A DNA stretch of 35,745 nucleotides from Bradymonadia bacterium (GCA_046290225.1 JBKAGE010000067.1:1-35745); one strand, 5' to 3'; positions 11,041 through 29,872 are shown, counted from the stretch's first letter. Numbers and translations are program-made. The notes: generated by a model from the letters alone, not told the origin.

Positions 11041-12105
11041 TCAACGCAAGCTGGCAAACCGTGCTTTGTCTCGGGCCCGTGCCCTGGCCTCCTTTGCGGC
11101 CACCCGACCACTCTTCGCCGCCTCGAAGAGGGCGTCGTCCATGGACTGCATGCCCACCCCCTTCCCGGATTGGATCAGCGAGGCCAGCATCGAGATTTTG
11201 CCCTCACGGATGATGTTGGGCAGACCTGGCGTCGCCAGCAGAATCTCGTTCACCGCACAACGCCCCTGCCCGTCAGCGGTCCGCAACAGCAGCTGCGCCA
11301 CCACCGCCGACAGGGACTGTGACAACATCAGTCGCGCTTGCTCCTGCTCGTCTTCGGGGAACGCGTCGATGAGGCGATCGATGGTTTTCGAAGCGTTGTT
11401 CGTGTGCAGGGTGCCAAAGACCAACGCGCCGCGCTCTGCGGCGTTGATGGCCTGACTGATGGTCTCGTGATCCCGCATCTCGCCCACGAGGATCACATCG
11501 GCGTCCTGCCGCGTGGCCGCTTGGAGGGCACCGGCGAAACTGTCGGCGTGCACGCCCACCTCTCGGTGCAGGATCGTCGACATCTTGGGCGTGTGCACGA
11601 ACTCCACCGGATCTTCGATGGTGATGATCAGTCGGTTTTTGGTGGCGTTGATCAGATCGATGATCGAGGCCAGGGTGGTGCTCTTGCCACTGCCCGTGGG
11701 GCCCGTGACCAGCACGAGGCCTTTGTCGTACTCGGCGATCTTCGCCACCGCCGGTGGCAGATTGAGCTTCTCGATGGGGATCACCGTGTCGGGGATGATG
11801 CGGAACACCGCCCCAGCCCCATAGCTCTGCCGGAAGTAGTTGGCCCTGAACCGCGCCACGCCGGGGATCGGGTGGGCGAAGTCGACATCATGGGTGCCGG
11901 TGAACTCCGTCCAGAACTGCTCTGGGCAGATGCTCCGCAGCATCTCCATGAGCTGGCGCTCTTGGAGCACTGGCCAGCCCTCGATGGGGGTCAGCCGACC
12001 CCGCAACCGCACACAGGGCCTGATGCCCGTGGCCATGTGCAGATCCGAGCCCCCCATCTCTTTGAGGGTGCACAGCAACTGCTCCATCTTGTTCGACCGG
12101 GACAT
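11041..12105 (-). CDS. pilT: PilT/PilU family type IV pilus retraction-type ATPase (paralogue)
   Basis: GSDLH, RFRANYF, Walker A GPTGSGKSTT, TIEDPVEF, Walker B VILVGEMRD, His box GTLHT, LPNIIRE (AIRNLIRE variant). Start MSRS overlaps the upstream stop (TGATG). Confidence 0.88.
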   Translation of the reverse strand: MSRSNKMEQLLCTLKEMGGSDLHMATGIRPCVRLRGRLTPIEGWPVLQERQLMEMLRSICPEQFWTEFTGTHDVDFAHPIPGVARFRANYFRQSYGAGAVFRIIPDTVIPIEKLNLPPAVAKIAEYDKGLVLVTGPTGSGKSTTLASIIDLINATKNRLIITIEDPVEFVHTPKMSTILHREVGVHADSFAGALQAATRQDADVILVGEMRDHETISQAINAAERGALVFGTLHTNNASKTIDRLIDAFPEDEQEQARLMLSQSLSAVVAQLLLRTADGQGRCAVNEILLATPGLPNIIREGKISMLASLIQSGKGVGMQSMDDALFEAAKSGRVAAKEARARARDKARFASLR

Positions 12106-13682
12106 CAGCTCATCCCTCCGGGCTGCCAGCCGTTGCGGGCCGCCTCTTCGTCGCTGACGAGACCTGCCCGATACAGCCGCTCCACCGATTGAGAGAGCAG
12201 GCACATGCCATCGTTGAGGCTGGTCTGCATGATCGATCTCAGCTGGTGCATCTTCTGATCACGGATCAGATTGCCCACAGCCTGTGTGTTGTAGAGCACT
12301 TCCACCGCCGGCAACCGCCCGGCCTGATCCCGATGGGCCAGCAGCCTCTGTGAGACCACCGCCTTGAGCGACTCCGACACCATGGCCCTGATCTGGCTCT
12401 GCTGTTTCGGAGGGAAGCTGCCAATGAGCCGGTTCACCGTGGCTGCGGCGCTGTCGGTGTGCATCGTGCCCAGGACGAGGTGACCTGTCTCCGCGGCGGT
12501 GAGCGCCAGAGAGATGGTCTCGATGTCCCGGAGCTCGCCGATCACGATGATGTCGGGATCTTCCCGAAGGGCGGCTTTGAGGGCCCGGCCGAAGGACTGG
12601 GTGTTGTCGCCGATTTGACGCTGGTTCACCACGCACTGCTTGGACTGGTGCAGGTACTCGATGGGATCCTCGAGGCACAAGATGTGGTCGTACCGCTCTC
12701 GATTGAGAATGTCGACGAGGGCAGCGAGGGTAGAAGACTTCCCACTGCCACCAGGGCCCGTGATGAGCACCATGCCCTGATGAAAATCCACGAGCCTGGA
12801 GAAGTCCGGGGGCAAGTTCAGCTCAGCGAGGGTGGGCGGCGTCGGGGTGATGATGCGGAACACTGCCCCCACCCCCTGCTGATGTTTGAATGCGTTCCCC
12901 CTGAACCGCGCGAGCTCGGGCAGGGTGTACATGAAGTCCGCTTGCCCCGTGGCCTCGAAACGCTTGCGCTGTACCGGGGTCAGCCGGGCCATGAGCATCT
13001 GCTCGAGGTTCGGCGGCGGCATGGCGCCCTGCACCTCTCGCAGTGATCCGCTCGCCCTCTCCTTCACCACGCACCCTGCGTGAATGTGCAGGTCGCTGGC
13101 CCCGCGGTTGGTGGCCCCCGAGAGCATCAGATCGAGCCAATCGTCCTTGGGCGTAGCCTCTGCAGGCGGTGTCTTCACCGGCTGGTCGAGGGGGGCCGGC
13201 GTCAATGGCAAGGTGCCCAAGCCCGGCGCAGGCCCTCTGGCCTGTGTGGGCGGCACAGATGCTTGAGCAGGAGGCGGCTGTGGGCTGGCCAGCTCGGGGC
13301 GAGGGGCACGCACTGCAGGTGCCCTCGCCGCTGGGGCTGGTCGTGCAGCAGGTGCAGGACGCGGTGCAGGCCGCGACGCAGGTGCTGACCTCGTAGACGG
13401 ACGAGGCGGTGGCTGAGCTGGGGGCTTCTCCGAGGGCGGCTGCTCCTGGATGTCCGACAGCTTGATGGGCCCCTGCACATATTGCCGGGCGATGAGGCCT
13501 TTCTGGACCTCGACCAGCCACTGGTGATGGTGCTCGGACAAGAAGCCCTGCTGCACCATCAACTCACCGATGCGGGTGTCGGGACTCCGAGTGCGCTGAA
13601 TCGCGAGACAGGCATCCACCACAGGCTGGCGGACGAGGTTGAAGTGGACGGCCAGCCGCCCGAAGAGCAAATCGTCGTTCAT
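12105..13682 (-). CDS. pilT: PilT family ATPase with N-terminal MshEN-like domain and Pro/Ala linker
   Basis: ASDLHI, GPGGSGKSST, EDPIE, ALREDPDIIVIGELRD, AETGHLVLGTMHT, AVGNLIRD. N-terminal LFG..AV..NLV....V..CL..Q followed by RIGELMVQQGFLS. Confidence 0.88.
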   Translation of the reverse strand: MNDDLLFGRLAVHFNLVRQPVVDACLAIQRTRSPDTRIGELMVQQGFLSEHHHQWLVEVQKGLIARQYVQGPIKLSDIQEQPPSEKPPAQPPPRPSTRSAPASRPAPRPAPAARPAPAARAPAVRAPRPELASPQPPPAQASVPPTQARGPAPGLGTLPLTPAPLDQPVKTPPAEATPKDDWLDLMLSGATNRGASDLHIHAGCVVKERASGSLREVQGAMPPPNLEQMLMARLTPVQRKRFEATGQADFMYTLPELARFRGNAFKHQQGVGAVFRIITPTPPTLAELNLPPDFSRLVDFHQGMVLITGPGGSGKSSTLAALVDILNRERYDHILCLEDPIEYLHQSKQCVVNQRQIGDNTQSFGRALKAALREDPDIIVIGELRDIETISLALTAAETGHLVLGTMHTDSAAATVNRLIGSFPPKQQSQIRAMVSESLKAVVSQRLLAHRDQAGRLPAVEVLYNTQAVGNLIRDQKMHQLRSIMQTSLNDGMCLLSQSVERLYRAGLVSDEEAARNGWQPGGMS

Positions 13683-15046: not shown

Positions 15047-18000
15047 TCAGGGCACCGGTTCTGGGGCCGCTGGCAGGCACATCACGTCGTACACCACGGG
15101 GATGTCACAACCTCCGCTGGGGCCCCAACCAGCATCATAGTTCTGCACAGGATCGTTGTTCCGGAACAGGTTGCACGTAATGTTCGGCACATCGCCCTGG
15201 GACAAGGTGGTGCACAGCCCCTCTTCGAAGCTCACCGGCGCCCCGTGGCCTCGGTTGAGGCATGCAAGCTCGGCACAGCGCTCCGCGGTCCCACAGCTGT
15301 TGAAGCTGTCGCAGCTGCCGTGATGGCCGAACGCCTGCTCGGCGCCGAGGGCGACGAACGCGTTGCGGCGCAAGATGACCCGCTCCCAGCCAGCATCGCC
15401 ATTGAGGCTGTTGTCCCCACAACGGTAGCCAGACCGCACAGTGCCATTGCCTGTGTGAATACACATTCGCAGCTCTGGCTGATCGTTGCGCTCGACGTCA
15501 CAGCTGCTGCGGCGCACGGGGGCACCACCGGGGGCGAAGCCCCAGGAGAATTCAGGGGAGTAGTACCACGCCACGCCATTGTGCTCGTTCGTCGCATCTG
15601 CGCCATTGCCCACGTCGAGGAACACCTCTTCGAAGAGGCCCTCGGCGGCGAGGGTGAAGGTGTCGGCACCTACGGGGCGACAGGCCATCATGAGCTGGTC
15701 GGCGTCACAGTCGGCCTGGATTTGAGCCAGATCGTCACCATTGCTGTTGAAGAGGCTGCTGTAGCAGACCTCCCAGCCCATGGCGGTGGTCGCGGCCTCG
15801 GTGAGGTTCTGTTGCACGCCGGGCGTCAACACGGCGCGGTCCGCGGGGGGTGGATCGACACAGAGCCCTTCTTCACAGGTCTGACCCGCGTTGCAGTCGT
15901 TGAAGTCGCGGCACTCGCCTTCGCCAAGCACGGTGCACAGCCCCTCTGCGCAGAACTCGCCAGCTTCGACATTGCACTGGGCATCGTCGCGACAGCCACC
16001 CACGGGCAGGCACGTCATGCCGGCATCTTCAACATGACCACAGTTGTGACCCCCGAGGGGGGTGGCGGGGCATTGGAGCAGGCGCTCCTCATCGCCTTCA
16101 CATTGAACGTCGTCGAGCCAGATCTGCCCTTCTCCGCCGCCGAATCGCTGAATCGCCTCCACCGCGCCGGGGTACCCGAGCTGACGGCAGGCGACATCGG
16201 CGTCCGGCAGGTTCCAGAGATCGTCACAGACGGTGCCCCACTCGCCGTTGACGTAGATCTCCACGCGACCATTTCTGGGGCCCTCGCCGCCGACGAGGCG
16301 CACATCACCATTACGCAACGGGGTGAAGCCCACCATGTACTGCATGAGCGTGAGAGAGTCGGCGCTGAAATCGGGATCAGTGTCTTGCCAGTCTGACTCC
16401 ACGAGCCAGAGCCGGCCGCCGCTGACGTTGATGTAGGCGAGAGAGACGGTGTTCGCGTCCCAGCCACCCAAGGGCGTGATGCCCGGATAGGCGCTGAGGT
16501 CGAACCCACAGCCAGTGCGCCCCTCGTGCACAGCGACAGCAGCGTTGTCCTGCCAGAAGGGGTCATTTTCGTTGAAGCGCACAGGGGGGTTGATGTTGTC
16601 ACTGCAGCCACCGATGTTCGCCCCCTCACTGGGGGCCACGTTGGCTTCGGGGAACACTGCGTTAAAGACCTCGTCGTTGATGTTGTACTCGGTGATGACA
16701 TTGCCGCCACCCTCGAGGTATCCCCGCAACTGAGCCCCGTCGATGTTCTCCGCTCCAGTGCGCGTGATGAGCAACGTCTGCACAGAGACATCGGGTGCGC
16801 ACCCCGGGACGACCTGCAGATCGACCCCTTCGGGGATGAAGGTGGCCACATCTCGGCTCGACCCCCCACAGCGCATCAACACACTCCGCTCAGGCGGCGG
16901 CAGGTCGACGCAGAGGTTGTCTTCGCAGAGCTGCCCTGCGTTGCAGTCATCCGCATCTCGACACTGGCCCTCGCCGAGTACGGTGCAGAGCTCGTCGATG
17001 CAGATCTCGTTGTCGGCGCACTGCGCGTTGCCTTCGCACTCGCCCACACGCAGACAGGTGATGGCTACATCTTCATTGTGACTACAGTTCTCGATGCCAA
17101 GGCCTGCGTTGGGACAGTCGAACAACCGCGCCTCGTCGCCGACGCATTCGACGTCGTCGAGCCAGGTGGGCTGGCCATTGGCGCCGGGCACGGCATCGTA
17201 GTCAGCCACCCGCACCCCAGGGAAACCAAGCTGTCGGCATGCGACCTCAGCGTTCAGCCGGTCCCACCGATCGTCGCAGACAGTGCCCCACGTGCCATTG
17301 GCGTATACCTCGATCCGGCCATCATGGAAGCCCTCGCCACCGACCAGACGGATCATCCCCTCCTCGACGGGCCCACGCAGCAAGATGAAACGCATGATTT
17401 GTTGGGTGTTGGTGGTGAAGTAAGCCTCGCCCTGCTCAGTGTCCTGCCAGTCCCCCTCGGTGAGCCACAGGCGGCCCTGGCCGAGATCGCGATAGGCGAG
17501 CGACACGGTGTTCTCGCTCCAACCACCGAGCGGGGTGATGCCCGGGTAGGCGCTGAGGTCGAATCCACAGCCGCTTTCGTTGTTCTGCGCGGGGGGCAAA
17601 GCACCGTTGGTCTGCCAGAAAGGGCTCCCGAGATTGAAGCGGACGGGAGGATTGACGTTGTCGGTGCACGACCCCTGCCGGGCCCCCTGTACGACCCCTG
17701 CATCGGGGAACAATAGATTGAAGATCTCGTCGGAGTTACCGAACTCGGTCATGAGGTGACCGCCGGCCTGCATCCACGCCGTCACTGCCGGACCATCGAT
17801 CTGTCCGTTGCGGCTGACAGCCATGGCGACAGTGTTGTCGTTCGGCTCACACCCAGCGGCGACAACGACCCCATCTTCAGGGCCGAAAATGACCGAGATG
17901 TCCCGTGCCGGCTCACCACATACGAGCACAGTGGGTCCATCGGGCGGGCAGACATCGCCCTCATCGACGGTGCCATCGCAGTCGTCGTCGATCTCATTGC

Positions 18001-18997
18001 AGGCCTCGTCACCGGCGATGCCTGCTTCTGCGTCGCACTCGGGGCCCTGCTCGCCACAGACGATGACACCCGCGCTTTCACAAGCCCCCTCACCTACGGT
18101 GCAGGCGTCGCCGAGGCCCTCGACATCATCGACGTTCCCGTCGCAGTCATTGTCTACGCCATCGCAAATCTCGTCGACCGGCTCGATGACCTGTGCGTCA
18201 CACAAGGTGCCTTCACCGCCCTCGACGCAGACGCGTACGCCCATGGCCATACAGGCACCTTCGCCGATGGTGCAGGCCTCACCCACTGGGTAGCCGTTGT
18301 CGACTTCACCATCACAGTCGTTGTCGACGCCGTCGCAGGTCTCCTCGCCAGGGGCCCCAGGTACGGCATCACAGACGAGTTCACCGTCGGTACAGACGAA
18401 ATTGCCGGCGCTTGCGCATGCGCCCACGCCCACCTCGCAGGCCTCGCCGAGGCCATCGAGATCGTCGACTTCACCATTGCAATCGTTGTCGATGCCGTCG
18501 CACACCTCTGGTGAAGGCACGCAGGGCTCCCCGCCCCCCATGCCACCGACTTCGCCACCCGCGCCGCCGACCTCGCCGCCAGCACCGCCGACTTCGCCGC
18601 CTGCGCCACCGGCATCGCCGCCCATGCCGCCGACCTCACCTCCGGCACCACCAGCGTCTCCGCCCATACCGCCGACCTCGCCGCCAGCACCACCGGTTTC
18701 ACCGCCTGCGCCACCAACCTCCCCACCGGCTCCACCGACCTCACCGCCTGCGCCGCCGACCTCACCGCCGGCTCCACCGACCTCACCGCCAGCGCCAGCA
18801 ACGGCGCCGCCCATGCCACCGGCGCCCCCGATCGCACCTCCAGTGCCGCCGGCAGCGCCTCCGCTGCCGCCCATCACCGCGCCTCCAGTGGCGCCTCCAG
18901 CACCCCCACCTTCTCCTGAGGTGGATCCTTCGTCGTCACATGCACCCAACCCTGCGGCCAGGCACACAGAGAGCGGCACCAACTTCAACAGCCTCAT
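15047..18997 (-). CDS. Large Cys-rich lipoprotein: Gly-rich tether, 4 putative metal-binding (MopE-like) repeats, 2 SRCR domains and duplicated unknown domains
   Basis: Start MRLLK (GGGAG RBS), lipobox LGAC. Four E.C(D/N)..D(N/D)DC(D/N)G.VD repeats. Two SRCR domains RLVGG.....GR.E.Y.NG.WGTVCDD.W....A.VACRQLG...WLDDV.C.G.E.RL..C......NC.H.ED....C at 17054-17353 and 16010-16303. Confidence 0.9.
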   Translation of the reverse strand: MRLLKLVPLSVCLAAGLGACDDEGSTSGEGGGAGGATGGAVMGGSGGAAGGTGGAIGGAGGMGGAVAGAGGEVGGAGGEVGGAGGEVGGAGGEVGGAGGETGGAGGEVGGMGGDAGGAGGEVGGMGGDAGGAGGEVGGAGGEVGGAGGEVGGMGGGEPCVPSPEVCDGIDNDCNGEVDDLDGLGEACEVGVGACASAGNFVCTDGELVCDAVPGAPGEETCDGVDNDCDGEVDNGYPVGEACTIGEGACMAMGVRVCVEGGEGTLCDAQVIEPVDEICDGVDNDCDGNVDDVEGLGDACTVGEGACESAGVIVCGEQGPECDAEAGIAGDEACNEIDDDCDGTVDEGDVCPPDGPTVLVCGEPARDISVIFGPEDGVVVAAGCEPNDNTVAMAVSRNGQIDGPAVTAWMQAGGHLMTEFGNSDEIFNLLFPDAGVVQGARQGSCTDNVNPPVRFNLGSPFWQTNGALPPAQNNESGCGFDLSAYPGITPLGGWSENTVSLAYRDLGQGRLWLTEGDWQDTEQGEAYFTTNTQQIMRFILLRGPVEEGMIRLVGGEGFHDGRIEVYANGTWGTVCDDRWDRLNAEVACRQLGFPGVRVADYDAVPGANGQPTWLDDVECVGDEARLFDCPNAGLGIENCSHNEDVAITCLRVGECEGNAQCADNEICIDELCTVLGEGQCRDADDCNAGQLCEDNLCVDLPPPERSVLMRCGGSSRDVATFIPEGVDLQVVPGCAPDVSVQTLLITRTGAENIDGAQLRGYLEGGGNVITEYNINDEVFNAVFPEANVAPSEGANIGGCSDNINPPVRFNENDPFWQDNAAVAVHEGRTGCGFDLSAYPGITPLGGWDANTVSLAYINVSGGRLWLVESDWQDTDPDFSADSLTLMQYMVGFTPLRNGDVRLVGGEGPRNGRVEIYVNGEWGTVCDDLWNLPDADVACRQLGYPGAVEAIQRFGGGEGQIWLDDVQCEGDEERLLQCPATPLGGHNCGHVEDAGMTCLPVGGCRDDAQCNVEAGEFCAEGLCTVLGEGECRDFNDCNAGQTCEEGLCVDPPPADRAVLTPGVQQNLTEAATTAMGWEVCYSSLFNSNGDDLAQIQADCDADQLMMACRPVGADTFTLAAEGLFEEVFLDVGNGADATNEHNGVAWYYSPEFSWGFAPGGAPVRRSSCDVERNDQPELRMCIHTGNGTVRSGYRCGDNSLNGDAGWERVILRRNAFVALGAEQAFGHHGSCDSFNSCGTAERCAELACLNRGHGAPVSFEEGLCTTLSQGDVPNITCNLFRNNDPVQNYDAGWGPSGGCDIPVVYDVMCLPAAPEPVP
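18530..18910 (-). repeat. Coding Gly-rich heptapeptide repeat (GGAGGEV/GGMGGDA)n
   Basis: About 13 consecutive 21-nt units with synonymous divergence, inside the lipoprotein tether. Confidence 0.85.
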
Positions 18998-19241
18998 GGA
19001 CTGACTCCCTCGATTGTGCGTCGAGCACACAGCACCCATGGGCATTCACCCCCAGCGCTCTACCCAGCCCGACGCACACAGAACGGTGTGTTGTGCGAGG
19101 TGGGACTCATGATTCGACGCATGTCCGATGTCTCCTGACGAACAGCATCGGCTCTAGAGGAAGGGCCCGTAAAGGAAACTCATCAGACAAATCAGCAGCC
19201 CTGCGGCCAAGACCTCTGTGAACACACACTCTGGAGGTCTC

Positions 19242-19802
19242 ATGAAGGTTGTCTTTGCCGCATTGCTCCTACTGCCTGTCACCGCTGTCGCCGAGCGCAG
19301 CCCCTGGAGCTTCTCTGCCGGTCCCCGGCTCGAAGCAGCTGCCGAGCACGGGCTCGGGGGCAGCCAGGCTGGGGCCCGGTGGCGCTTTTCGGAATCCTTC
19401 GCTCTCGACCTCGTGGGGCGACAGGGCTACTTGAGCAGTTACGAGGAAGGGTTGGGGGATCACGCCTATGTGGCCCTGCTCGCGGGCATCACTTGGCAAG
19501 GTGCCGACGCAGGTGATGGCTGGACCCCAAACGTCTCCGCCCGCCTCGCCCATATCCACCACGCCACAGCAGAGAGCTGGGCCGAGACACCTGGGGCCAA
19601 CATCGCCGGCGACTCCAATGGCGGGGTGGAGCACCGCTCGGGGGCAGAGCTCGCGGTGGGCCTGCTCGGGCCCAGGCTGTACAGCGGTGAAGGCTGGCAT
19701 CTGCGCTGGAGCGTGGAGCTGAGCGGCACCACCCTGCCCTCGTCCGAGGTCATGGGCTGGTCCATGGGCCTCACCGGCGGGGTGGCCCTGGGCTTTGACT
19801 GA
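19242..19802 (+). CDS. Secreted beta-strand-rich protein, possible small outer-membrane beta-barrel
   Basis: GGAGG RBS, signal peptide MKVVFAALLLLPVTAVA, alternating amphipathic strands, C-terminus GLTGGVALGFD. Confidence 0.6.
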   Translation: MKVVFAALLLLPVTAVAERSPWSFSAGPRLEAAAEHGLGGSQAGARWRFSESFALDLVGRQGYLSSYEEGLGDHAYVALLAGITWQGADAGDGWTPNVSARLAHIHHATAESWAETPGANIAGDSNGGVEHRSGAELAVGLLGPRLYSGEGWHLRWSVELSGTTLPSSEVMGWSMGLTGGVALGFD

Positions 19803-22800
19803 TCAGAGCCGCAACACGTCTCTCAGCGCGGCCCTGGCATCGGGATCGGCGAGGATGACCTGACACCGCGCCCGGGCGGTGGCCTCGTCGAGCTTGCCCT
19901 CGCTCACATGACGGGCCACGGCGAGCAGGGCGTTGAGAGGTACGGTGGGGCCGTGCCGCTGCCCACGGGCTACGGCGGCCCAGCTCGGGGTCTCGGGCAG
20001 GGCCTCGGGCCGCTGCTCAGGGGGCGCGATGCCTGCGCTCCGGGGCCGCGCGTGGATCGGGCGCCCGGAGCGCGTGGTGCTGGCATCCACGGGCATCCAC
20101 CGCGGCCCCCACGGGCTGTCGAGCAGGGCCATGGCCCACAAGTGATCAGGCTCATCCACCTGACCGCGATCGAAGGTCCACCCTGTGGCGAGGGCCGCGG
20201 GGATGCCCGACCTGCGCAACAGCTCGCAGGCGAGAGTGTTCAGCTCGTAGCAGATGCCCCGGCCCAGGTGGTGCGCGTCCCGACCTGCGTGGAGCATGGC
20301 GAGGTGCACGTTGGCCCGGCCCTCGCTCACCTTCGCCAGCCATCGGGCGTGGCGCGGGTCTTCGAGGTGTTTGGGATCGTATCGATAGCGCTCGGCGATG
20401 AAAGCCCTGATCATCTTGATGCGCTGGACCACCCCTTCGAGGGCGATGGCGTCGACGAGTGCGTGGCACGGCTCGGGCAGCTCGTCATCGGGCACCGTGG
20501 GCGTCCACAGCGCTTTGTGGCTCGGCAAGGACAGCAACGTCGGGGCCGTGGTCTCCTCACCAAAAGCGGGCGCTGGGGCGAGGGCCACCTCACAGGTGAG
20601 CTGCACATCGTCTTCGAGCCGCAGGGTGGCGCCGTCGAACTCGATGACACGCCCATCCTCCCCTGTGACCTTCAACAATTTGCCATAGAGCGGGAGCGGC
20701 AGCTGCACGACGCCGCCAGGCATTCGACCTCGCATGGTGACAACCGGACCCCCCTCCCCTGGGGTCGCCCATTGTGGATCGACACCTCTGGGGCTCCATC
20801 GCTGGCTTCGACGATGAAATGTGCCGGCGATCTGCAGTGGCCCATAGGTGTACGGCGCCGGCAGCCGGCCAGGGCGAAAAGCGAGGCCGTACCGAGAGAT
20901 ACGGTGGCGATCGTCGAGCCAGTCAGTGCGGGCACCGATCTGCGGGCGGATCGCCTCTCGCTGCTGAAACCAGCGTCGATCGTCAGGCAGCTGCGACGCA
21001 CCAGCTGACGATCCTGATGCATCACCGCGGGGAGGCGTTGGAGGCGCTGAGCGCTCTGGGGCGTGGCGTTCCGCGCGATTGCTCTCGGATGGTGGGGGTT
21101 GGGCAGGTGAGCGATCTTCCCCCTGGCCGCCGAGCAGCCGCCGCAGGCTGGACCACAGGCCCTCTTTTGGTGCTTCTGCACTCGCGGGGATCGCCGGCGA
21201 GGGCGCTTGCTTCTGGGGTATCTGCGCAGGCGCGGTGAAGGCCCCGTGGTGCGCCAGCCACTCACGCCAGGGCGCCGTGTCGAGGCCCGGCGGTGTACGC
21301 ACGACGGCACTCGGATCTTCTGTGCGGATGAGCGGGTGCTCCACGGGCCAGAGCAACGACTCGCCGTTGTGTTGTACCACCAAGCCCCACGGCTGTGGTG
21401 GAGGCTCGTCGGCGGCAGCGAGATCGCCCATGAGCTCCAGGTAGATTTCGTCCCAGTCCGAGGTGCCGATCAGCCAGGCACGCCCGTCGCGCTGCTGGCT
21501 CTCGAACACCCAGGCCAGCACCCGCCGGTGATGGGTGAAGCCCGCCTGAGTGGGGATGCCCAGGGCGCTGGTGAGGCGGCTGAGCTTTCTGCCCTGCCGC
21601 CACCCGCCGCGCCAGGGGCCGTAGCGCCCGGGCTCGAGATCCCGTATCAGCGCCCCAGGTGCTCTGGGGGTGTCGTCGTCATCGAGCAGGGTGAGTCGAT
21701 CTGAAGCAGCCCGAACCTCGTCGGTGCTCAGGTGGCCTGCTCCGAGGGCATCATCGATCCACTGCAGTACAGCACTGGGAGTGACGGCTGCCTCCTGGTG
21801 GGCATCGAGTACGTCACGCAGGACCAGCCCATCGGCGCCACGACACCCGAGACGTGGGCCCAGGGCGAGGCCACTCTCGGCGCCGAAGGCTCGGGCCAAG
21901 GCCTCGCTCACCAGCTTGCCGTGGCCCGGGCCGAGCATCGACACCACCTCTTCCGTGGGCCAGTAGAGGCTCGACGGCTCAGCCCAGCGGCCATCGACTG
22001 CAGGCATCCACGACCGCCGTCGGAGATCGAGAGCATCCACCAGACCCTTCTCTGTCTCCACGCGGTGGCAGAGATAGAGCGCCAGGGCGACACGTGCCTC
22101 ATCGCCCGCCACGCGACCGCGCCCGTCGAGCAGCGCGCCGAGAGTGGCCGTGTCCAACGCACCTTCGGCACCGGCGAGCTGAATCAAACGCCGTGAGGCC
22201 GATGTGTCGTACACATCGCTCGGCCCAGGCGGTGGCCTCTGCATGAAGGTTTCGATCAAGTGCCTCTGAGCGTCATCGGCGGGACTGAGCAGATCTTTGG
22301 GCCGGGTGAAGCCGCCCCGCACATCGGCCACCTTCAAGCGTCGATGAAGCTTCAGCCGTTTGATCAGATCCACCAGAGCGCCCTCTTCGGCCGCGTCGAC
22401 CGAGAGCACATGGGCCAACCCTCTCACGAGACGCACCGAGGCCTCGACGTCTGCTCTGCCCATGGCCTCTTCGTGGGCGTCGAGCAGACGCTCCGCCACG
22501 CGGCGCACCGCCCCTTGTGGTGTGATCATGTGCGCACCGAGCCAACGTCGCAGTGGCTCGGGGATCTCCCCGTGGGGCTGGTCGTCGGCGATGTGCAGAT
22601 CGACGACACCCAGGGTCCGCCAGAGTAGATCTCGTGGCCGCTGGAGCACCCCGCCGGCGCTGAGGCACACCGCGGCGGCGCCCAATGCCCCTCGGGCCTG
22701 CTCATCCTGGGTGATCTCCGCACCATGTCGCAGCAACCACCGATACAGACTCTGCCGCCCTTCGGGCTGCCTCAGAGCGGGGACCGGGTGCGCCTCTGGA

Positions 22801-25800
22801 GCAGTGGGCACGTTGGCGATCTGGGCCATGGCCTGGAGCAGTCGCCGGGGTGGGAGCGGGGGCTCGGGATGAGGCCAGTCCGGATGCGCCAGTCGGGCGC
22901 TGAGAGGCAACCCGACAGCGAGGGCCACTGTATCTGCGTCGGCAGCGTGCACCGGGGCACTCTGCAGGCGCCCCTCCGCGTCCACTGTGAGAATCTGCCC
23001 TGCTCCGAGGGCGTCGGCGAGCAGAGCGACCTGAGCCACGGTAGACAACCATGGGGGCTGCGCATCGAGGGGAACGCCCCAACGTGCCCCACGCTGTACT
23101 TGCTCGAGCAGCCACGCATCAGGTGAGGCGAAGCCGAGGGGCGGTCCGTGCTTGGGTGCACCCGCATCAGCGACAGTCTGCCCTTGCACAGGATCAAGGC
23201 GCACAGCATCGGGTACGGAGAGTCCATGGTCCATCAAGCCCTCGGCGATGATGAGGGCCTTCGCCGGCTCGAGCACCCCTGAGGCGCTCTGCCACATGAC
23301 CAGCTCGGGCAACACATGGGCGGCGCCGAAGGTGGATAAATCCGCTGAGAGCACCACGGCCCTCAGCGCCTCTGCGCTCTGCTCGGGCAGCGCCGCCCCT
23401 CGCCAGCCCGTGACAACCTCGTCGAGGGTGATGGGTGTGATGCCCAGCCGCTCGATCAGCGACCACCTGTCGTGCTCCACATCGGCATCGAGCAATGGCC
23501 ATGGACCACCCTGCATCGCCGGACGCAGCGACCCGGGCACCACCAGTCCCTGCGGGCCCCCGAGCGTGCACCACCGCCCATCCGTATCTGGCCACCATGG
23601 CAGCGTGCTCAGGGTCGCCAATGCGGCCTCGGAGCACGTGAGTCCGCCCACCTTCAAGGCATCGGTGATGGCTTCCCTCAGGGATGGAGGCCATGGGGTG
23701 ACGTCCGACCTGGCAAACAGCTCTGCCATGTCAGCGATCAGACCATCATCGCCTCCGAACCCCATGTACTCGGCGAGGGACAAGCCCTCGACGAGGCGGC
23801 GAGCCCCCTCGGCCAGCTCGTCGTCACCGAGGGCCAGAGGTGCCCACGAAGTCGTGAGCCCAGCAGCCTCGATTTCGGCATACACACGGGCCACCCGGTC
23901 GATACTCGGCGGTGGCCGACGCGTCGAAAGCGGGGCCAGTGCCCCGGCGTTGTCGGGCCAGATCGGCGCCTCTGCCAGGGCTCGTCTCAACCCCTCGTCG
24001 AAATCGGTCCATGCCCGTGGTCGGGTCGACAGCCAGACCAGCAGCCCTCTGCGACCCGCGTCGCTCTCGGTGTCGATGGCCGGGGGCAGGCTCGATGCGT
24101 CACCGGCGAGGGCCTGGGCGAGGCTCAGAGTGCTCACCACAGTGATGCCCATCATCTTGAGGTGGGGCATCCTGCCGAGGCGTGGATCGATCCAGGGCCC
24201 ATCGGGCAGCCAGCCAGAGATGGACTCGTCTTCAGGCCAGGCCACACGCTCTGCGCCCACGAGCGCACGCCGACGCCCAACAGTGTCGAGATGGATCGGC
24301 AGCTTCGCCCAACGCTTCAGTTGTCGTGTAGAGAGCCCCTCGGCCACCTCTGCGAGCCAGCGATGCAGTCCGATCAAAGCCTCATCGTCGAGCTGCACCG
24401 ATCCGCGCAGCAGGGCCTCTGCCATGACATCCGAGGTGAGGGTGCATCCGCCCAGACGAGCGAGCACGTGACGATGTGCAGGATCATCCAGCCGCGCCAG
24501 GGGTGGTCGGACCACAAGATCAGCCACGAAGCGCTCGAGGGCATCACCGACGCCGATCCAGAGCGCGCCAGCGCCGGTGAGCGGCGCCAGAGCCTCACGT
24601 TCAGCAGGGAAGATCGGCAACGGGGCGATCTTCGCCGCTTCAGCGCCGAGCGCCCCTTCGTGGGCCCGCAGCCACGGCAAGAACCCAGGCCGAGCACCGA
24701 GCTCAGGCCCACGCTCGGGGTGCTCGAGCAACGCCACCACCTGAGACACCCCAGCGAACTTCGGTCCCAGCCGGCGCCACCCCCTGGGGCTCAAGGCCTC
24801 TGCCAGGCCCTCGTGAACGAGAGGCAGCATCGAGCCCACGAGCGCCCGAGTGAGCGCGTCGGCGAGATACACCTTCGAAGGCGCACACCACGCCTCCTCG
24901 ACGTCTATGAGCCAGGGCGTCGCCTGCACCTTTTGAAGTTGTGTCTCGGAAAACCGCTTCTGTCGTGCGGTGGCATCCACCCAATGGAGCAGCCCCTCGA
25001 TGGCCTCGAGACGCGGCGGACCCGCGAGGTGCAGATGAGCCAGCGCCGTCGTGCACACTTCTGGCGACCACCTGCGGGCGCCGAGCCACAGCAAGACCTC
25101 GTCTGCCGTATCACCTTCGGCGATCAGTCGGGCACCGCCAGCGTCCAGAGGCAGCCCCGCGAGGGCTTCAGCAAGGGCAGCGGGGCCCAGGATCACCTGA
25201 GACACCGGCCAGCTCTCACCCACAGCGTCCACCACCATCGGGGCATCGCCGACGGCGTTTTTGAAGGCCTCGCCCAAGGCCGCCCAGCCAGGGTGACTCA
25301 AGCGCCTGGGCGAGCGCAGGCACCCCAAGAGGGCCCGCCTCTGCGACGGCGGCAAGTTCAGGGCGAGGCCCGCGAGGGCTTCGCCAGCGTCGATGAGCAA
25401 TCGCTGATTGGTATCACGGCTCGGATCCAGCCGCTCGCGATCCACGGGCAGTTCAAAGGCCCCGTGCACCATGATCCCCCACCCCGGGCGCGCCCCTGTA
25501 GGCAGATGGCAGAACACCTGTGGCAGCACCTCTGGCAGCGGCACGGGGCAGCCAGCATCGTCGGTCTGCACCGCCACCAGCGTGCCCGCTTTGCCCTGAG
25601 CCAGCCGCCAATGCTCCACCTGGGCCTCGCCCTCACCGCTCAGACGCGTCTCCAGGCGAGCACCGGCTTCGGTGTCCACACGGCGGACCTCTCGCTGGCG
25701 GCCATCTGGCGCGATCCACCGGAACGTCCGGATCGAGCGCAGCGCCAGCAACGTGCTCGGGGGCAGCGCCTGAGCATGGTGCCACATGGCGTCGAGGCCC

Positions 25801-26810
25801 ATCTCGGCATCGTCGGGCTGCCGGAGCGGCAGAATCAATCGGGTGAGGTGCTCCTCTGGTGTCCGATCAGTCACCGGCCTCGGGATCGAGACATCGGCGA
25901 TCTCGAAGGCGTAGACGTCGGTGTAGAGCCTCGGGCGCTCGCTGATGGCGTAGACCGCCTTGAAGCCCACCCCGAACATGCCGATCTGGCCTTTGCCCTT
26001 GGTGGTCTGGCCGATGGACAAGACCCCCACGACATCGCGCAGGTCAAAGGGGGCCCCGTCGTGGATCACGTGGACCGCCCCTTCAGCCTGGTGGGCTTCG
26101 ATGTGCCAGCACGTGGCCCCAGCGTCTTCGGCGTTCTGCACCAGCTCCACCAGCCAGTGGCCGGGATCGGTATAGATTTTCTGCGAGAGCAAGGCCTCGG
26201 CCCCTGCCTGGGAGGCAGAGCGGGGTATGGCGGCGAGGGCTTCGAGGGCGCTTTTGGCGAGCCGCCCGCGACGGTCTCGAAAGGCTGCATGTTGAGAAGG
26301 CGCGCCCGCGACGAGGGCCTCGATGGACCGCCCTGGCAGACACATGAGGGGGCCGTCAGGGAGTGCGTCCACATCACCACTGCGCAACGCCGCCTCGACC
26401 TGCTGCACTGCCTCGTCCACCAGAAGGCGCCAGCGCTCTGGCGTGTGCCGGGAGAGCCAGCGAATCAGCAGCGAGAATGTGGTGACGCGATGAATCGGGG
26501 TCCGCGCCGCCGCCTCGGCCACCACCGGTCCCCAGGCCTCCCCCGTCATGGGCCCCAACAGTCGGGCCACCCCAGCATCAGAGAGATCGCTCAGGGCCTC
26601 GGCGACGGCGCCGACGAACCAGGGCTCCCCCAGCGCCCCGGCATCGGCGAAGGCCAGAACACACCGAGCCAGGGGCTCGTGATCGGGCCAGCGGCTCAGC
26701 GTCTCGAGCAGTCGACTTCTCATCTGAGCATCGGCATCACGGGCCACGGCGTCGACGATGGTGACGACCTCGGCGAAGGGCAGGCCTTCAAGGGCAGGCA
26801 AGCTGTTCAT
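19803..26810 (-). CDS. Giant sacsin-like GHKL ATPase with repeat scaffold and C-terminal transglutaminase-like domain (2335 aa)
   Basis: GHKL motifs ELVQNAEDA / HDGAPF / SIG.TTK / IGMFGVGFKAVY, plus sacsin-type CHLPT...HGAFEL..DRE. C-terminal RYD...GICYELN....ELLRRSGIPA..ATG...HLWA...WMPVDAS (Cys-His-Asp triad). Confidence 0.85.
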   Translation of the reverse strand: MNSLPALEGLPFAEVVTIVDAVARDADAQMRSRLLETLSRWPDHEPLARCVLAFADAGALGEPWFVGAVAEALSDLSDAGVARLLGPMTGEAWGPVVAEAAARTPIHRVTTFSLLIRWLSRHTPERWRLLVDEAVQQVEAALRSGDVDALPDGPLMCLPGRSIEALVAGAPSQHAAFRDRRGRLAKSALEALAAIPRSASQAGAEALLSQKIYTDPGHWLVELVQNAEDAGATCWHIEAHQAEGAVHVIHDGAPFDLRDVVGVLSIGQTTKGKGQIGMFGVGFKAVYAISERPRLYTDVYAFEIADVSIPRPVTDRTPEEHLTRLILPLRQPDDAEMGLDAMWHHAQALPPSTLLALRSIRTFRWIAPDGRQREVRRVDTEAGARLETRLSGEGEAQVEHWRLAQGKAGTLVAVQTDDAGCPVPLPEVLPQVFCHLPTGARPGWGIMVHGAFELPVDRERLDPSRDTNQRLLIDAGEALAGLALNLPPSQRRALLGCLRSPRRLSHPGWAALGEAFKNAVGDAPMVVDAVGESWPVSQVILGPAALAEALAGLPLDAGGARLIAEGDTADEVLLWLGARRWSPEVCTTALAHLHLAGPPRLEAIEGLLHWVDATARQKRFSETQLQKVQATPWLIDVEEAWCAPSKVYLADALTRALVGSMLPLVHEGLAEALSPRGWRRLGPKFAGVSQVVALLEHPERGPELGARPGFLPWLRAHEGALGAEAAKIAPLPIFPAEREALAPLTGAGALWIGVGDALERFVADLVVRPPLARLDDPAHRHVLARLGGCTLTSDVMAEALLRGSVQLDDEALIGLHRWLAEVAEGLSTRQLKRWAKLPIHLDTVGRRRALVGAERVAWPEDESISGWLPDGPWIDPRLGRMPHLKMMGITVVSTLSLAQALAGDASSLPPAIDTESDAGRRGLLVWLSTRPRAWTDFDEGLRRALAEAPIWPDNAGALAPLSTRRPPPSIDRVARVYAEIEAAGLTTSWAPLALGDDELAEGARRLVEGLSLAEYMGFGGDDGLIADMAELFARSDVTPWPPSLREAITDALKVGGLTCSEAALATLSTLPWWPDTDGRWCTLGGPQGLVVPGSLRPAMQGGPWPLLDADVEHDRWSLIERLGITPITLDEVVTGWRGAALPEQSAEALRAVVLSADLSTFGAAHVLPELVMWQSASGVLEPAKALIIAEGLMDHGLSVPDAVRLDPVQGQTVADAGAPKHGPPLGFASPDAWLLEQVQRGARWGVPLDAQPPWLSTVAQVALLADALGAGQILTVDAEGRLQSAPVHAADADTVALAVGLPLSARLAHPDWPHPEPPLPPRRLLQAMAQIANVPTAPEAHPVPALRQPEGRQSLYRWLLRHGAEITQDEQARGALGAAAVCLSAGGVLQRPRDLLWRTLGVVDLHIADDQPHGEIPEPLRRWLGAHMITPQGAVRRVAERLLDAHEEAMGRADVEASVRLVRGLAHVLSVDAAEEGALVDLIKRLKLHRRLKVADVRGGFTRPKDLLSPADDAQRHLIETFMQRPPPGPSDVYDTSASRRLIQLAGAEGALDTATLGALLDGRGRVAGDEARVALALYLCHRVETEKGLVDALDLRRRSWMPAVDGRWAEPSSLYWPTEEVVSMLGPGHGKLVSEALARAFGAESGLALGPRLGCRGADGLVLRDVLDAHQEAAVTPSAVLQWIDDALGAGHLSTDEVRAASDRLTLLDDDDTPRAPGALIRDLEPGRYGPWRGGWRQGRKLSRLTSALGIPTQAGFTHHRRVLAWVFESQQRDGRAWLIGTSDWDEIYLELMGDLAAADEPPPQPWGLVVQHNGESLLWPVEHPLIRTEDPSAVVRTPPGLDTAPWREWLAHHGAFTAPAQIPQKQAPSPAIPASAEAPKEGLWSSLRRLLGGQGEDRSPAQPPPSESNRAERHAPERSAPPTPPRGDASGSSAGASQLPDDRRWFQQREAIRPQIGARTDWLDDRHRISRYGLAFRPGRLPAPYTYGPLQIAGTFHRRSQRWSPRGVDPQWATPGEGGPVVTMRGRMPGGVVQLPLPLYGKLLKVTGEDGRVIEFDGATLRLEDDVQLTCEVALAPAPAFGEETTAPTLLSLPSHKALWTPTVPDDELPEPCHALVDAIALEGVVQRIKMIRAFIAERYRYDPKHLEDPRHARWLAKVSEGRANVHLAMLHAGRDAHHLGRGICYELNTLACELLRRSGIPAALATGWTFDRGQVDEPDHLWAMALLDSPWGPRWMPVDASTTRSGRPIHARPRSAGIAPPEQRPEALPETPSWAAVARGQRHGPTVPLNALLAVARHVSEGKLDEATARARCQVILADPDARAALRDVLRL

Positions 26811-26896
26811 GGGGGAGGAGTGTGGTGGGGGGGCAGGCCAGAGGCAAGCTCAGAGGCAATCCCGGGGCCAGAGCCGGATCACCCGTGCGCCCTCGC

Positions 26897-29872
26897 TCAC
26901 TGGGCGTTGGGACCCACCGAGACGACCTCCCACGGCCAGACGCCAGTGAAGACCAGCATGATCCGGAAGCTCTGATCGTCGGAGTCCTCCGCGGGGGTCA
27001 GAGCGCCTGCAGCCACGGCGATGGCCTCGCCGTCAGCGGGCAGCTGAAGGGGGCCAAAGGTGGCGATGGGGGCCATGCCCGTGGGGGCCACGCCGAGGGT
27101 GTAGTTGCCGGGCATGACCGGCAGGCCCTCGGGGGGCGTCACCGCGGGGAAAGCCACGTTCTCGAGACCCGGGAGGATGGTGAAGCCCTCGCCCACCACG
27201 CCGACGTCCACAGCAGGGGCATCGGGGGAGCCGTGCACCGCACGGAGCAGGAAAGCGTTGGGATCGTCTTCGGGGGCCATAAAGCCGTCGGCGAGGCTGA
27301 TGAACTGGAAGGGCTCACGACCCTCAGGCTGCTCACCGAGGAAGCCCGTGGCGATGACGAGGTAGCGCTCACCGGCCATCAGCTCGGGGGAGGCATAGGT
27401 GATCACGGGATCACCCTCAGGGCGCATCGGGCCCTTGTCCGAGGCGAAGATGTCGAGCATGTACTCGCCCGGGGGCACCTGCACAGGGTTCGAGAGATCG
27501 CCGAAGCCGATGTTCTCGATGAGCTCGTCGCGACCGGCGAAGACATCTACGGCGGGGGCGTTGGGGCCCGCGTGCAGCACAGTGACCTGGGGATCCTGGC
27601 GGATGAAGCCGATGGCACCCTCAGCGCCCACGGCGAGCAGGTTGAAAGCGTCGCCCGCATTGGGCTTCGAGCCGAGCAGGCCGGTGGCGATGACGTACAG
27701 CTCGCCGCCCTCGGGCAGCTCAGGCGTGGTGAAGGCGGTCACCGTGTCGACGGTGTCTTCGACCTCGAGGACCACCCCGATGTTGATGGGCTCACCGGCG
27801 GGCAAGGCCACGCCTTCAGCCCCCGTGTCAGCGAAGCGGGTGAAGGCCTCCTGGCCCACCTCGATGGAGCCATCAGCGCCCACATCGAGGCCCACGGCAG
27901 GGGCGTTGGCGCCGGCGTGTACAATGCGCACCCGGGCGTTGCCCTCTTCAGCAGGGCCGAAGCCATCGAGGTAGGGCAGCAGGCGGAAGCCGTCCTCTTC
28001 GTCGCCACCGAGCACACCTGCAGCCACCACGGTGTAGCGCTCAAAGGGCATGAGCTCGAGCTCGGGACTCACGAATGCGGGCTCGCTGTCGGCGGCAGCA
28101 CCGGCGGCGCGGATCTCAAAGGTGTATGCACCTGCAGGCACAGCGGCGTAGTCCGTGGCGGCGCCATAGGGCGCGCCGGCGAAGGCAGGATCCATGGCCC
28201 CCTGCACATAGACGTCGACGTCTGGAGCCCCAGGAGAGGCGTGGATGACCCGAATTTCGGCTTCAGGCTCTGTGGGGGCCACCTGAGCAACCGTCCAGGG
28301 CCAGGCGGCGGTGTTCACCACCATCAGGCCAAAGGGCTGCTCGTTCTCCAGCATGGGGCTCAAGAAGCCCGTGGCCAGGGTGAACGCCCGCAGACCTGCG
28401 GTCAGGTCGAGGTCGAAGGCTTCAACGGGCGTGGGGGTACCGGTGGCGGCGACGCCCACACGGATCTCGCCGGGGGGCAGGGGCAAGCCGGCCGCGTCGG
28501 TGCTCTCGCCGTACTCGAGCTCCTCGAAGACTGGGGCCACGGCGCCGTTGGCGATGGGGCCGACGTCCACAGGGGGCGCATCGTGAGAGGCATGGACCAC
28601 GCGGACCACGGCATTGTCGGCGTCGACGGTGAACTGATCAGTCACCACGGCGAGGTTGATCTCCTCACCGCCGCCCAGGACGTTGGCGGTGCCGCTGGCG
28701 TACACCAGGTAACGCTCACCGGCCATCAGCTCGGCGTCGGCGAGGGTGGCGGCGCCACGGCCCTCGGGGCGCTGCGAGCCCTCGGCGTGGCCGAAGGCGT
28801 CGAGGGTGTAGGTGCCCGGGGGTACGATGATGGGCTGGGAGATCATCCCATAGTCGAGGTTGTCGATGAGCTCGGCGTCACCGGCGAAGACGTCCACCGC
28901 AGGGGCGTCGGGGCCTGCGTGCAGGGCGTAGACGGCGGGGTTCTGCTGGATAAAGCCGATGGTGCCCTCGGGGCCCACGGCGAGCAGACCAAAGCCGTCA
29001 TCGGCGTTGGCCCGGGTGGCAAAGCTGCCGGTGGCGATGACGAAGAGGTCGGCACCACCAGGGAGCTCGGGGGTGGTGAAGCTGGTCACCAGAGCGGCAG
29101 CCTCGTCGGCGGTGGTCAGGCCCACCTGCAGCGCCTGACCTGCCGGCAAAGGCACGCCTTCGGCGCCAGTGTCCGCGAAACGCTCCACAGAGGCGATCTC
29201 CACATCGCCGTCAGCGCCCACATCGATGCCCACGGCAGGGGCGTCGGCGCCGGCGTGCACGATGCGTACTCTGGCGCTCTCGTCCGAAGGTGCGCCGAAG
29301 CCCTCTACCTGAGGCACGAGACGGAACGCGTCTTCATCGGTCTCACCGCCGAGGAAGCCTGCGGCGATCACCGTGATGTTGGCGTTTCCGGGCAGGTCGA
29401 GTTCCGGAGAGACGAAGACCGGCTCCGAATCGAAGGCAGCGCCAGCGGGGCGCACCTCGAAGGTGTAGGCGCCGGCCTCGATCTCGAGGTAGGTCGAGGT
29501 GTCCTGGTAGGTCAGGCCGGAGATGGCGGGCTCGTTGCTGCCCTGCACGTACACATCCACAGCGGGGGCATCGGAGGCTGCGTGCACCACGCGGAGTCGA
29601 AGGCTCTCGGGGGGCATGACCTCACCGCCCATGCCGGCCTCACCGCCAGCTCCGCCGGCCATGCCCGCCTCACCACCAGCTCCACCGCCCGCTTCGCCAC
29701 CCATGCCGGCGGCACCGCCAGCGCCGCCTCCCGCCTCGCCCCCGGCGCCGCCGATGACGCCACCGGCACCGCCAGCGCCGTCTCCACCGCTGTCGTCATC
29801 ATCACAGCCAACGACCACGCCACTGGAGAGAAGGGCCGCAGCCACCCACGACAATTTCCTTAGATTTCGCAT
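26897..29872 (-). CDS. Lipoprotein with eight DUF4397-type repeats
   Basis: Lipobox VVGC, Gly-rich tether, and eight ..hH(A/G)(S/G/A)..AP.V(D/G)h motifs arranged as two tandem blocks of four. Confidence 0.85.
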   Translation of the reverse strand: MRNLRKLSWVAAALLSSGVVVGCDDDDSGGDGAGGAGGVIGGAGGEAGGGAGGAAGMGGEAGGGAGGEAGMAGGAGGEAGMGGEVMPPESLRLRVVHAASDAPAVDVYVQGSNEPAISGLTYQDTSTYLEIEAGAYTFEVRPAGAAFDSEPVFVSPELDLPGNANITVIAAGFLGGETDEDAFRLVPQVEGFGAPSDESARVRIVHAGADAPAVGIDVGADGDVEIASVERFADTGAEGVPLPAGQALQVGLTTADEAAALVTSFTTPELPGGADLFVIATGSFATRANADDGFGLLAVGPEGTIGFIQQNPAVYALHAGPDAPAVDVFAGDAELIDNLDYGMISQPIIVPPGTYTLDAFGHAEGSQRPEGRGAATLADAELMAGERYLVYASGTANVLGGGEEINLAVVTDQFTVDADNAVVRVVHASHDAPPVDVGPIANGAVAPVFEELEYGESTDAAGLPLPPGEIRVGVAATGTPTPVEAFDLDLTAGLRAFTLATGFLSPMLENEQPFGLMVVNTAAWPWTVAQVAPTEPEAEIRVIHASPGAPDVDVYVQGAMDPAFAGAPYGAATDYAAVPAGAYTFEIRAAGAAADSEPAFVSPELELMPFERYTVVAAGVLGGDEEDGFRLLPYLDGFGPAEEGNARVRIVHAGANAPAVGLDVGADGSIEVGQEAFTRFADTGAEGVALPAGEPINIGVVLEVEDTVDTVTAFTTPELPEGGELYVIATGLLGSKPNAGDAFNLLAVGAEGAIGFIRQDPQVTVLHAGPNAPAVDVFAGRDELIENIGFGDLSNPVQVPPGEYMLDIFASDKGPMRPEGDPVITYASPELMAGERYLVIATGFLGEQPEGREPFQFISLADGFMAPEDDPNAFLLRAVHGSPDAPAVDVGVVGEGFTILPGLENVAFPAVTPPEGLPVMPGNYTLGVAPTGMAPIATFGPLQLPADGEAIAVAAGALTPAEDSDDQSFRIMLVFTGVWPWEVVSVGPNAQ

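Follow-up and report, generated by a model that had tools for sequence, protein, structure and literature searches.

A sacsin/Tiamat-type ATPase fused to a transglutaminase-like domain in a conserved family of giant bacterial proteins, with a candidate membrane anchor

The window analysed here is an entire contig of 35,745 bases from a Bradymonadia genome of 8.58 Mb (64% GC, 99% complete). On its minus strand a single open reading frame encodes a protein of 2,335 aa with no visible signal peptide and no hydrophobic span (best 19-residue hydropathy window 1.54); the reading frame, its size and its signal-less state are as an earlier note on this DNA had described them. The domain order is a helical cap, a sacsin-type ATPase with its transducer, about 12 repeats of about 110 aa, a Pro-rich linker and a transglutaminase module. 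The features are listed below, the basis of each in parentheses.

19803..26810 (-), whole gene, one open reading frame of 2,335 aa
26226..26810 (-), N-terminal helical cap, aa 1-195, a HEAT-like helix stack (structure model)
25806..26225 (-), sacsin/Tiamat-type GHL ATPase, aa 196-335, with Glu222, Asn226, Asp251, Gly277/280/282 and Thr323 (Pfam, PADLOC, NCBIfam, fold)
25311..25805 (-), S5-like transducer, aa 336-500, with a DRER motif (structure model)
21411..25268 (-), tandem repeats of 105-120 aa, about twelve in number and homologous to Tiamat's middle region (profiles and eye)
20991..21410 (-), Pro-rich linker, aa 1801-1940 (sequence)
21123..21164 (-), short basic amphipathic helix EGLWSSLRRLLGG, aa 1883-1896, predicted to bind membrane (pattern counts)
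20511..20990 (-), beta-sandwich ahead of the enzyme core, aa 1941-2100 (structure model)
20031..20510 (-), transglutaminase-like core, aa 2101-2260 (Pfam, model, fold match, conservation)
20250-20252 (-), codon of the catalytic Cys2187 (GICYE motif)
20142-20144 (-), codon of the catalytic His2223 (HLWA motif)
20085-20087 (-), codon of the catalytic Asp2242 (PVDA motif)
19806..20030 (-), C-terminal tail, aa 2261-2335, with three helices at its end (structure model)
19242-19802, small signal-peptide gene, convergent, just after the giant gene (window genes)

The giant gene is present as a single copy in the host genome, where a six-frame profile search gave one strong match per domain. It is preceded by a DUF4397 lipoprotein-like gene, the other window genes that were scanned being ordinary, and its GC and GC3 are those of its neighbours. 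A long ORF on the opposite strand (23472-26975) was discarded as a shadow, its codon composition mirroring that of the giant gene.

Two Pfam families were identified above cut-off, SACS (aa 213-299, E 1.2e-9) and Transglut_core (aa 2178-2243, E 1.9e-8). NCBIfam NF047352, the sacsin N-terminal domain, also matches the protein (E 3.3e-21), whose motifs are ELVQN (aa 222-226), HDG (250-252), GMFGVGFK (277-284), GICYE, HLWA and PVDA. The structure model of aa 1-540 (mean pLDDT 91.7) comprises an all-helical cap, in agreement with the helical N-terminal cap first read from the sequence, followed by the GHL ATPase and the transducer. The fold matches of the cap are generic helical repeats (best Z 8.3). 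The cap is specific to the family: its profile matches none of 52 control sacsin-type ATPases, and it contains positions conserved among the members. ESM Atlas gave weak recognition scores for the cap and the repeats, which are kept as leads, and a weak Pfam CATASP match in the cap, below cut-off, was set aside.

The Bergerat-fold ATPase signature is present, with the catalytic Glu, the Asn, the Asp-x-Gly, the Gly-rich lid and the Thr. Human sacsin SR1 (PDB 5v44) is the nearest ATPase of solved structure, both in sequence (E about 1e-10) and in fold (Z 15.2, with an rmsd of 2.7 over 160 residues); sacsin, however, is described as having three ATPase modules and a J + HEPN end, whereas the giant protein has one ATPase and a thiol enzyme. 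Through the transducer the model aligns to GRP94 (Z 14.8) and TRAP1 (Z 14.1), that is, to the N-terminal and middle domains of Hsp90. The role of a transducer arginine in Hsp90 and in Tiamat is given in the accessible text of a preprint (10.64898/2026.09.30.754977), and by analogy with Hsp90 the catalytic arginine is likely Arg458 or Arg460. By its ATPase signature and its conserved transducer arginines, the protein is placed in the sacsin/Tiamat clade of GHL ATPases. The sacsin/HSP90-like ATPase proposed at first sight is thus upheld by Pfam SACS, NF047352, the fold matches and catalytic residues invariant in the family.

The region that follows is formed by tandem repeats, as had been claimed, extending over about 1,290 aa (aa 515-1800) and not the about 1,400 aa originally given. 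The count of twelve was placed by eye from a shared motif, at a spacing of about 100-120 aa; repeat profiles found 5 or 6 repeats in the 2,335-aa protein and a median of 7 per member, over a background of 0-2 matches in total on reversed sequences. The only PADLOC family matching the whole protein is TmtA (best E 3.5e-32, aa 209-491, at the ATPase). When the ATPase was removed, the repeat region of 9 of 9 members still matched the middle of the TmtA profiles and nothing else, at E values from 6e-14 to 1.6e-3, the weakest being that of the 2,335-aa protein. Because both the ATPase and the ATPase-free repeat region match TmtA profiles, the chassis is that of Tiamat from the ATPase through the repeats. 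Pfam DUF3684 gave no match in the repeat region or in the members scanned, and an ESM Atlas link to DUF3684 is a weak lead.

Most relatives have an extra domain ahead of the Pro-rich linker, which is absent from the 2,335-aa protein. In the longer members we took this domain to be reminiscent of the inactive metalloprotease-like fold of Tiamat; the identification was rejected, its profiles matching 0 of 52 control ATPases above background and giving no TmtA match. The linker itself cannot be aligned, except for the short basic amphipathic helix conserved inside it, a feature absent from the first reading of the sequence. A strict pattern for this helix was identified in 87 of 138 members, compared with 144 of 6,900 shuffled sequences and 64 of 862 windows from the middle of proteins, and a looser one in 112 of 157 members versus 201 of 7,850 shuffles (2.6%); both patterns were written after the family had been seen, and the counts therefore show conservation and not function or membrane binding. 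Among the 45 proteins missed by the looser pattern, 25 were inspected and all show a variant by eye. The helix fits the MinD-type pattern (Gly-hydrophobic-hydrophobic-x-basic-hydrophobic-basic-x-aromatic), the membrane-anchor helix of Bacillus subtilis MinD being given as KGMMAKIKSFFG in the accessible part of PMC13537761. From its sequence the helix seems rather more inclined to bind membrane than not to; alternatively, it could be a protein-binding motif.

The last 415 aa were modelled with a mean pLDDT of 89.6 as a beta-sandwich, a transglutaminase core and three helices, and a conserved three-helix insert precedes the catalytic cysteine in the core. The codons of Cys2187, His2223 and Asp2242 sit exactly where the earlier note had located the triad. 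In the model the Cys lies at the start of a helix, the His at the start of a strand and the Asp after the next strand, the usual order of the transglutaminase fold. With this triad on that fold, the module is placed within the superfamily of transglutaminase-like proteins (PF01841), where proteolysis, deamidation and cross-linking all occur according to the available text of PMC10318531. Two further domain searches were negative: NOV_C or PD-(D/E)xK nucleases had no match in the 2,335-aa protein or 18 relatives, and Schlafen/AlbA had none in the 19 full-length members or pieces scanned.

The closest solved structure is the periplasmic module of Pseudomonas aeruginosa TgpA (PA2873; PDB 6g49, 6g4h), with a Foldseek E of 1.5e-7 and a Z of 15.0 versus 9.6 for the next best. 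Residues 26-335 of the model superpose on TgpA 196-476 as one module (rmsd 4.2 over 252 residues, 13-14% identity), both being formed by a beta-sandwich and a transglutaminase core with Cys-His-Asp. The alignment of the C-terminal region with the profile of a TgpA-type neighbour covered only 55 columns of the core, at a probability of 5.8%, so the TgpA link rests on fold searches. TgpA is described in the accessible text of PMC3507681 as a membrane-bound protein with a periplasmic domain, six membrane helices and a three-gene cluster, active as a transglutaminase (amine incorporation) in vitro; the module of the giant protein, in contrast, lacks membrane spans, probably resides in the cytoplasm and is joined to an ATPase.

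A family search with the last 396 residues gave 95 proteins, which range from 1,284 to 4,087 aa and almost all contain both Pfam domains. When the first 500 residues were used, 173 matches were obtained, and the 120 listed included 60 new proteins. Our own profile identified a transglutaminase domain in 52 of these 60 listed proteins, Pfam having missed many; the other 8 comprise early stops or unrelated sequence, one of them with a histidine kinase + receiver end. Among 1.84 billion representatives, 166 matches down to E 1e-30 were obtained with a profile. The family members are of 2,300-3,100 aa with about 12 repeats, and one of them, WP_012830857.1 (Hoch_5788), comes from the cultured Haliangium ochraceum. 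Both domains were identified in 154 of the 160 collected proteins of at least 2,200 aa, the ATPase only in 3 and the enzyme only in another 3; the fusion is therefore no assembly artefact, a doubt that the earlier note had raised.

In the 154 proteins with both domains the invariant residues are E222, N226, G252, K271, G277, G280, G282, K284, T323, R458, E459 and R460. Position D251 is Asp in 143 and Asn in 11, and the triad is kept as Cys in 153, His in 153 and Asp or Glu in all 154. From these residues it is very probable that an active ATPase and an active thiol enzyme are carried on one chain. No swap of the effector was seen among the collected proteins of the family. In a quick tree of the ATPase and transducer, built from 39 sampled family rows and 16 control sacsin-type ATPases, the 39 members form one long branch (support 100) apart from the controls.

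The surroundings of the gene were examined at 35 loci, the window included: 110 neighbours were scanned at 16 genome loci (106 of the 161 called, plus 4) and 66 at 18 metagenome loci (Pfam only). A DNA helicase or DNA methylase neighbour was identified at none of the 35, where 72 of 176 neighbours had no Pfam match and many loci were short, and the proposed defence-island association was not supported. The suggested partnership with MoxR and vWA proteins likewise found no support: a MoxR-transglutaminase operon was found at one locus and a vWA gene at one other, both single cases, as was an EAD2-kinase. Uma2, TnpB and integrase genes are also single occurrences, at 2 of the 35 loci. PADLOC matched 10 of the 110 neighbours, nine via generic domains (kinase, OmpA, ABC, sigma factor, sigma-54 activator) and one as Uma2. 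No partner gene is conserved across genera at the 35 loci, nor is any kinase or regulator conserved alongside; an all-against-all comparison of neighbours found sharing only within genera or of generic families (kinases, sulfatases), and a conserved partner was rejected.

As a control, more distant sacsin-type ATPases were examined at 23 loci, 18 of which have an adjacent helicase or Druantia-type gene; this is a biased set with about two neighbours per locus, in which large adjacent ones are favoured and one SNF2-linked family dominates. In the accessible text of the preprint (10.64898/2026.09.30.754977) a helicase lies beside only 14% of curated Tiamat genes. The neighbourhood result lowers the defence reading without excluding it. 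The flanks of the giant gene are ordinary (tRNA synthetases, guaBA, transporters) and are retained within a genus, the gene lying at the same chromosomal place in two same-genus pairs. Among 31 genomes of the order it was identified in 10, as one copy per genome and with a presence or absence that mostly follows the genus, and in a phylum-wide sample in 6 of 300. Most named members belong to Myxococcota, others being labelled Planctomycetota, Vulcanimicrobiota, Obscuribacterales and Alphaproteobacteria. The viral, phage and plasmid collections searched contained no match to the family.

Rates of divergence were taken from one pair of the same genus with conserved synteny. Identity is 88% in the enzyme core (dN 0.075, dS 0.65, the dS being crude), 81% in the ATPase and 58% over the whole giant protein, the last below all 14 neighbours (63-93%). 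The repeats and the linker are among the fastest-diverging parts, with repeat identities of 46-59% in this pair. These rates suggest a substrate that is fixed and a scaffold that is diversifying or under loose constraint, and a conserved core with divergent repeats is what would be expected of a fixed effector behind a variable sensor.

Of the known systems, the anti-phage protein Tiamat (TmtA) is the closest in layout: an N-terminal Hsp90-like GHL ATPase with a transducer arginine, a repetitive TmtA-matching middle and a C-terminal effector on a flexible linker, able to stand alone, as far as Tiamat is described in the available text. The giant protein has no PD-(D/E)xK nuclease, its effector being the beta-sandwich and transglutaminase core, and it is therefore not a strict Tiamat, although its layout works like one. 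The family also adds the 195-aa helical cap, the about 12 repeats and the predicted membrane helix, and reaches 2,300-3,100 aa versus the 1,063-1,655 positions of the TmtA profiles. The HEPN-transglutaminase-helicase-Vsr giants of the MTES_1575 type share with it a stand-alone gene, a proposed role in defence and a transglutaminase-like peptidase; they differ in their helicase and nucleases, and the accessible part of PMC3710099 does not mention a sacsin-type ATPase.

Literature searches found no description of an architecture with a sacsin-type ATPase and a transglutaminase, or of the Haliangium member, in line with the earlier impression that it had not been described. The claim of a new system has to be reduced, as the preprint 10.64898/2026.09.30.754977, in the text available, already contains Tiamat-like types whose nuclease is swapped for other effectors, peptidases included. 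The single peptidase type there (V-A) combines a Schlafen-like domain with a peptidase that is not named, whereas the domain before the core of the giant protein is a TgpA-like beta-sandwich. None of the words transglutaminase, papain, Myxo or Haliangium appears in the main text of that preprint, the figures or supplements of which could list the family. Judged by its sequences, the fusion is real and conserved, a variant of the Tiamat/sacsin kind that has apparently not been described, with a putative protein-directed effector and a candidate membrane anchor. The initial interpretation is upheld in part: an ATP-driven scaffold in which a thiol enzyme directed at proteins takes the place of the nuclease is supported by the near-invariant active sites and by the Tiamat-related ATPase and repeats.

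The protein is likely a stand-alone enzyme gated by ATP, with proteins rather than DNA as the target of its cutting or modification. As a whole we favour, tentatively and at a little under even chances, a single-gene derivative of Tiamat in which the nuclease was replaced by a TgpA-like cysteine enzyme: an ATP-gated, membrane-docked switch acting on a host protein, the trigger most likely being infection. By analogy with GHL proteins and with the model in the accessible text of the Tiamat preprint, binding of ATP would bring the ATPase heads together in a pair and shut a clamp with the repeats as arms. The repeats would bind the trigger, most likely a sign of infection, and this would be relayed to the thiol enzyme, presumably held at the inner face of the membrane by the predicted amphipathic helix. 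The enzyme may then cut, deamidate or cross-link a conserved host protein, hydrolysis or deamidation being guessed over cross-linking; a fixed host substrate is suggested because the enzyme core is strongly constrained.

An immune role as such is plausible, if short of an even bet, on account of the ancestry, the patchiness and the fast-evolving repeats. Against it stand the lack of a defence neighbourhood (0/35 loci versus 18/23 control loci), the ordinary flanks kept within a genus, the single copy per genome and the genus-wise presence, as well as an effector never seen swapped, GC and GC3 like those of the neighbours and the absence of viral, phage or plasmid matches. Moreover, the family stands on its own long branch away from the control ATPases and may therefore have left the job of Tiamat behind. 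A narrower form of immunity, in which the transglutaminase, docked on the membrane, is triggered by a Tiamat-type ATP clamp and cross-links or deamidates proteins at the inner membrane, whether these belong to the host or to a phage that is entering or assembling, seems doubtful.

The same ordinary setting favours a quality-control or remodelling machine outside immunity, a bacterial counterpart of sacsin whose repeats would hold damaged or aggregated clients while the ATPase cycles and the enzyme trims or deamidates them at the membrane. This is unlikely but deserves real weight because the setting is stable, partnerless and housekeeping: a stand-alone chromosomal gene amid housekeeping genes, syntenic in genera, in single copy and of fixed architecture, with sacsin as the nearest solved ATPase and Hsp90 proteins next. 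Against such a machine, the gene was not found in 21 of the 31 genomes of the order, several of them more than 90% complete, nor in 294 of the 300 of the phylum sample, the protein is the most diverged of its syntenic block, and the repeats match Tiamat profiles. Less probable still is a signalling or developmental switch cleaving itself or one membrane-bound regulator on an internal cue, as in the multicellular cycles of myxobacteria. The enzyme core, the most constrained part, would fit one fixed substrate, the long linker and predicted membrane helix would suit release by self-cleavage, and Myxococcota supply most of the named members; but no conserved kinase, regulator or other partner adjoins the gene and members occur in unrelated phyla.

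A structural cross-linker, whose own repeats would be used under ATP control to build or stabilise a scaffold in the cytoplasm or along the membrane, is very improbable. The amine incorporation by TgpA in vitro and a stretch of about 1,300 aa of tandem repeats that could form a lattice speak for it; the repeats, however, are poorly conserved, and the family alignment shows no conspicuous substrate segment rich in Gln/Lys. That the gene is a chimeric ORF or an inactive relic is scarcely credible. Frame breaks were found at 5 of 9 loci chosen for looking broken or badly called, one of the nine lacking the ATPase end, and these may be due to sequencing error or decay; against this, both domains and near-invariant active sites are shared by 154 long proteins, including the one from cultured Haliangium ochraceum.

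Should the favoured reading of an ATP-gated, infection-triggered derivative of Tiamat be right, protein cutting or cross-linking at the membrane would join the effector chemistries of the GHL defence ATPases; the one characterised Tiamat, in contrast, cuts DNA, and its E44A change abolishes protection according to the accessible text of the preprint (10.64898/2026.09.30.754977). If the role is not immune, the family would represent a bacterial housekeeping use of the Tiamat/sacsin chassis, with a bearing on the function of sacsin and NO VEIN.

By enzyme score the family is divided in two subgroups of 103 and 51 members. The second comprises proteins labelled Vulcanimicrobiota, Obscuribacterales, Alphaproteobacteria and Myxococcales; its tail is longer, and the end of this tail resembles a winged helix by eye.

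The genes flanking the giant gene (19803-26810, minus strand), which encodes the 2,335-aa protein with a sacsin-type ATPase and a transglutaminase core, and several other genes of the window are as follows, with domains assigned by Pfam.

4794-7376, minus: subtilase
7965-10025, plus: Kazal-repeat protein, divergent from the subtilase gene
11041-13682, minus: two PilT-type ATPase genes in tandem
15047-19045, minus: SRCR-bearing protein, 1,332 aa, lipoprotein-like
19242-19802, plus: small gene, 186 aa, with ribosome-binding site and signal peptide
26897-29872, minus: DUF4397 protein, 991 aa, lipoprotein-like, at least five DUF4397 domains

The DUF4397 gene lies directly upstream of the giant gene and shares its strand; comparison of called neighbours across loci showed that it is not conserved beside family members, the proteins with the same layout as the giant gene's product. 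On the other side, the stop codons of the small gene and the giant gene abut. The product of the small gene had no match in the Pfam scan, and an aromatic residue adjoins its C-terminus, which in sequence resembles the ending of an outer-membrane beta-barrel.

Neighbours of family members were scanned at 35 loci, window included. A row of consecutive genes encoding a MoxR AAA+ protein, a 728-aa transglutaminase and a 478-aa protein was identified at only one of them (L075, 3256-7969, minus), about 2 kb upstream of the family member and on the opposite strand. At L026 (6871-15571, plus), the family member is followed directly, on its own strand, by two genes for lipoxygenases and one for a kinase-AAA-GAF-cyclase protein.

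P0178 and P0225, of the family's second subgroup (the smaller set by enzyme score), present weak Prok-RING_1 zinc-finger matches immediately C-terminal to the transglutaminase core (E 8.5e-4 and 2e-5, both under the cut-off). P0171 (1,694 aa) comprises the family's cap, ATPase and first repeats followed by a histidine kinase and a receiver, and may be a chimera or a genuine fusion.

Loci of more distant sacsin-type ATPases contain other arrangements. A two-gene unit recurs at L077, L080, L095, L105, L107, L124, L126, L128, L130 and L135: the first gene encodes a Swt1-HEPN and SNF2 helicase protein of about 1,190 aa, the second a sacsin-type ATPase of about 1,030 aa. DruA, a sacsin-ATPase with a NOV_C nuclease, NurA and HerA form a single operon at L098 (8965-16172, plus).

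The window's own genome (G000) contains two other Hsp90-like ATPase genes (L011, 1483-3102, plus, and L012; contigs C61 and C79). Their products passed the Pfam sacsin cut-off only by a narrow margin, are far shorter than that of the giant gene and belong to a different family.

Within the window, the Kazal-repeat protein and the subtilase are a possible protease/inhibitor pair. The SRCR-bearing product has two copies of the SRCR domain, which is more familiar from animal proteins, along with repeats of two kinds, Gly-rich and MopE-type Cys.
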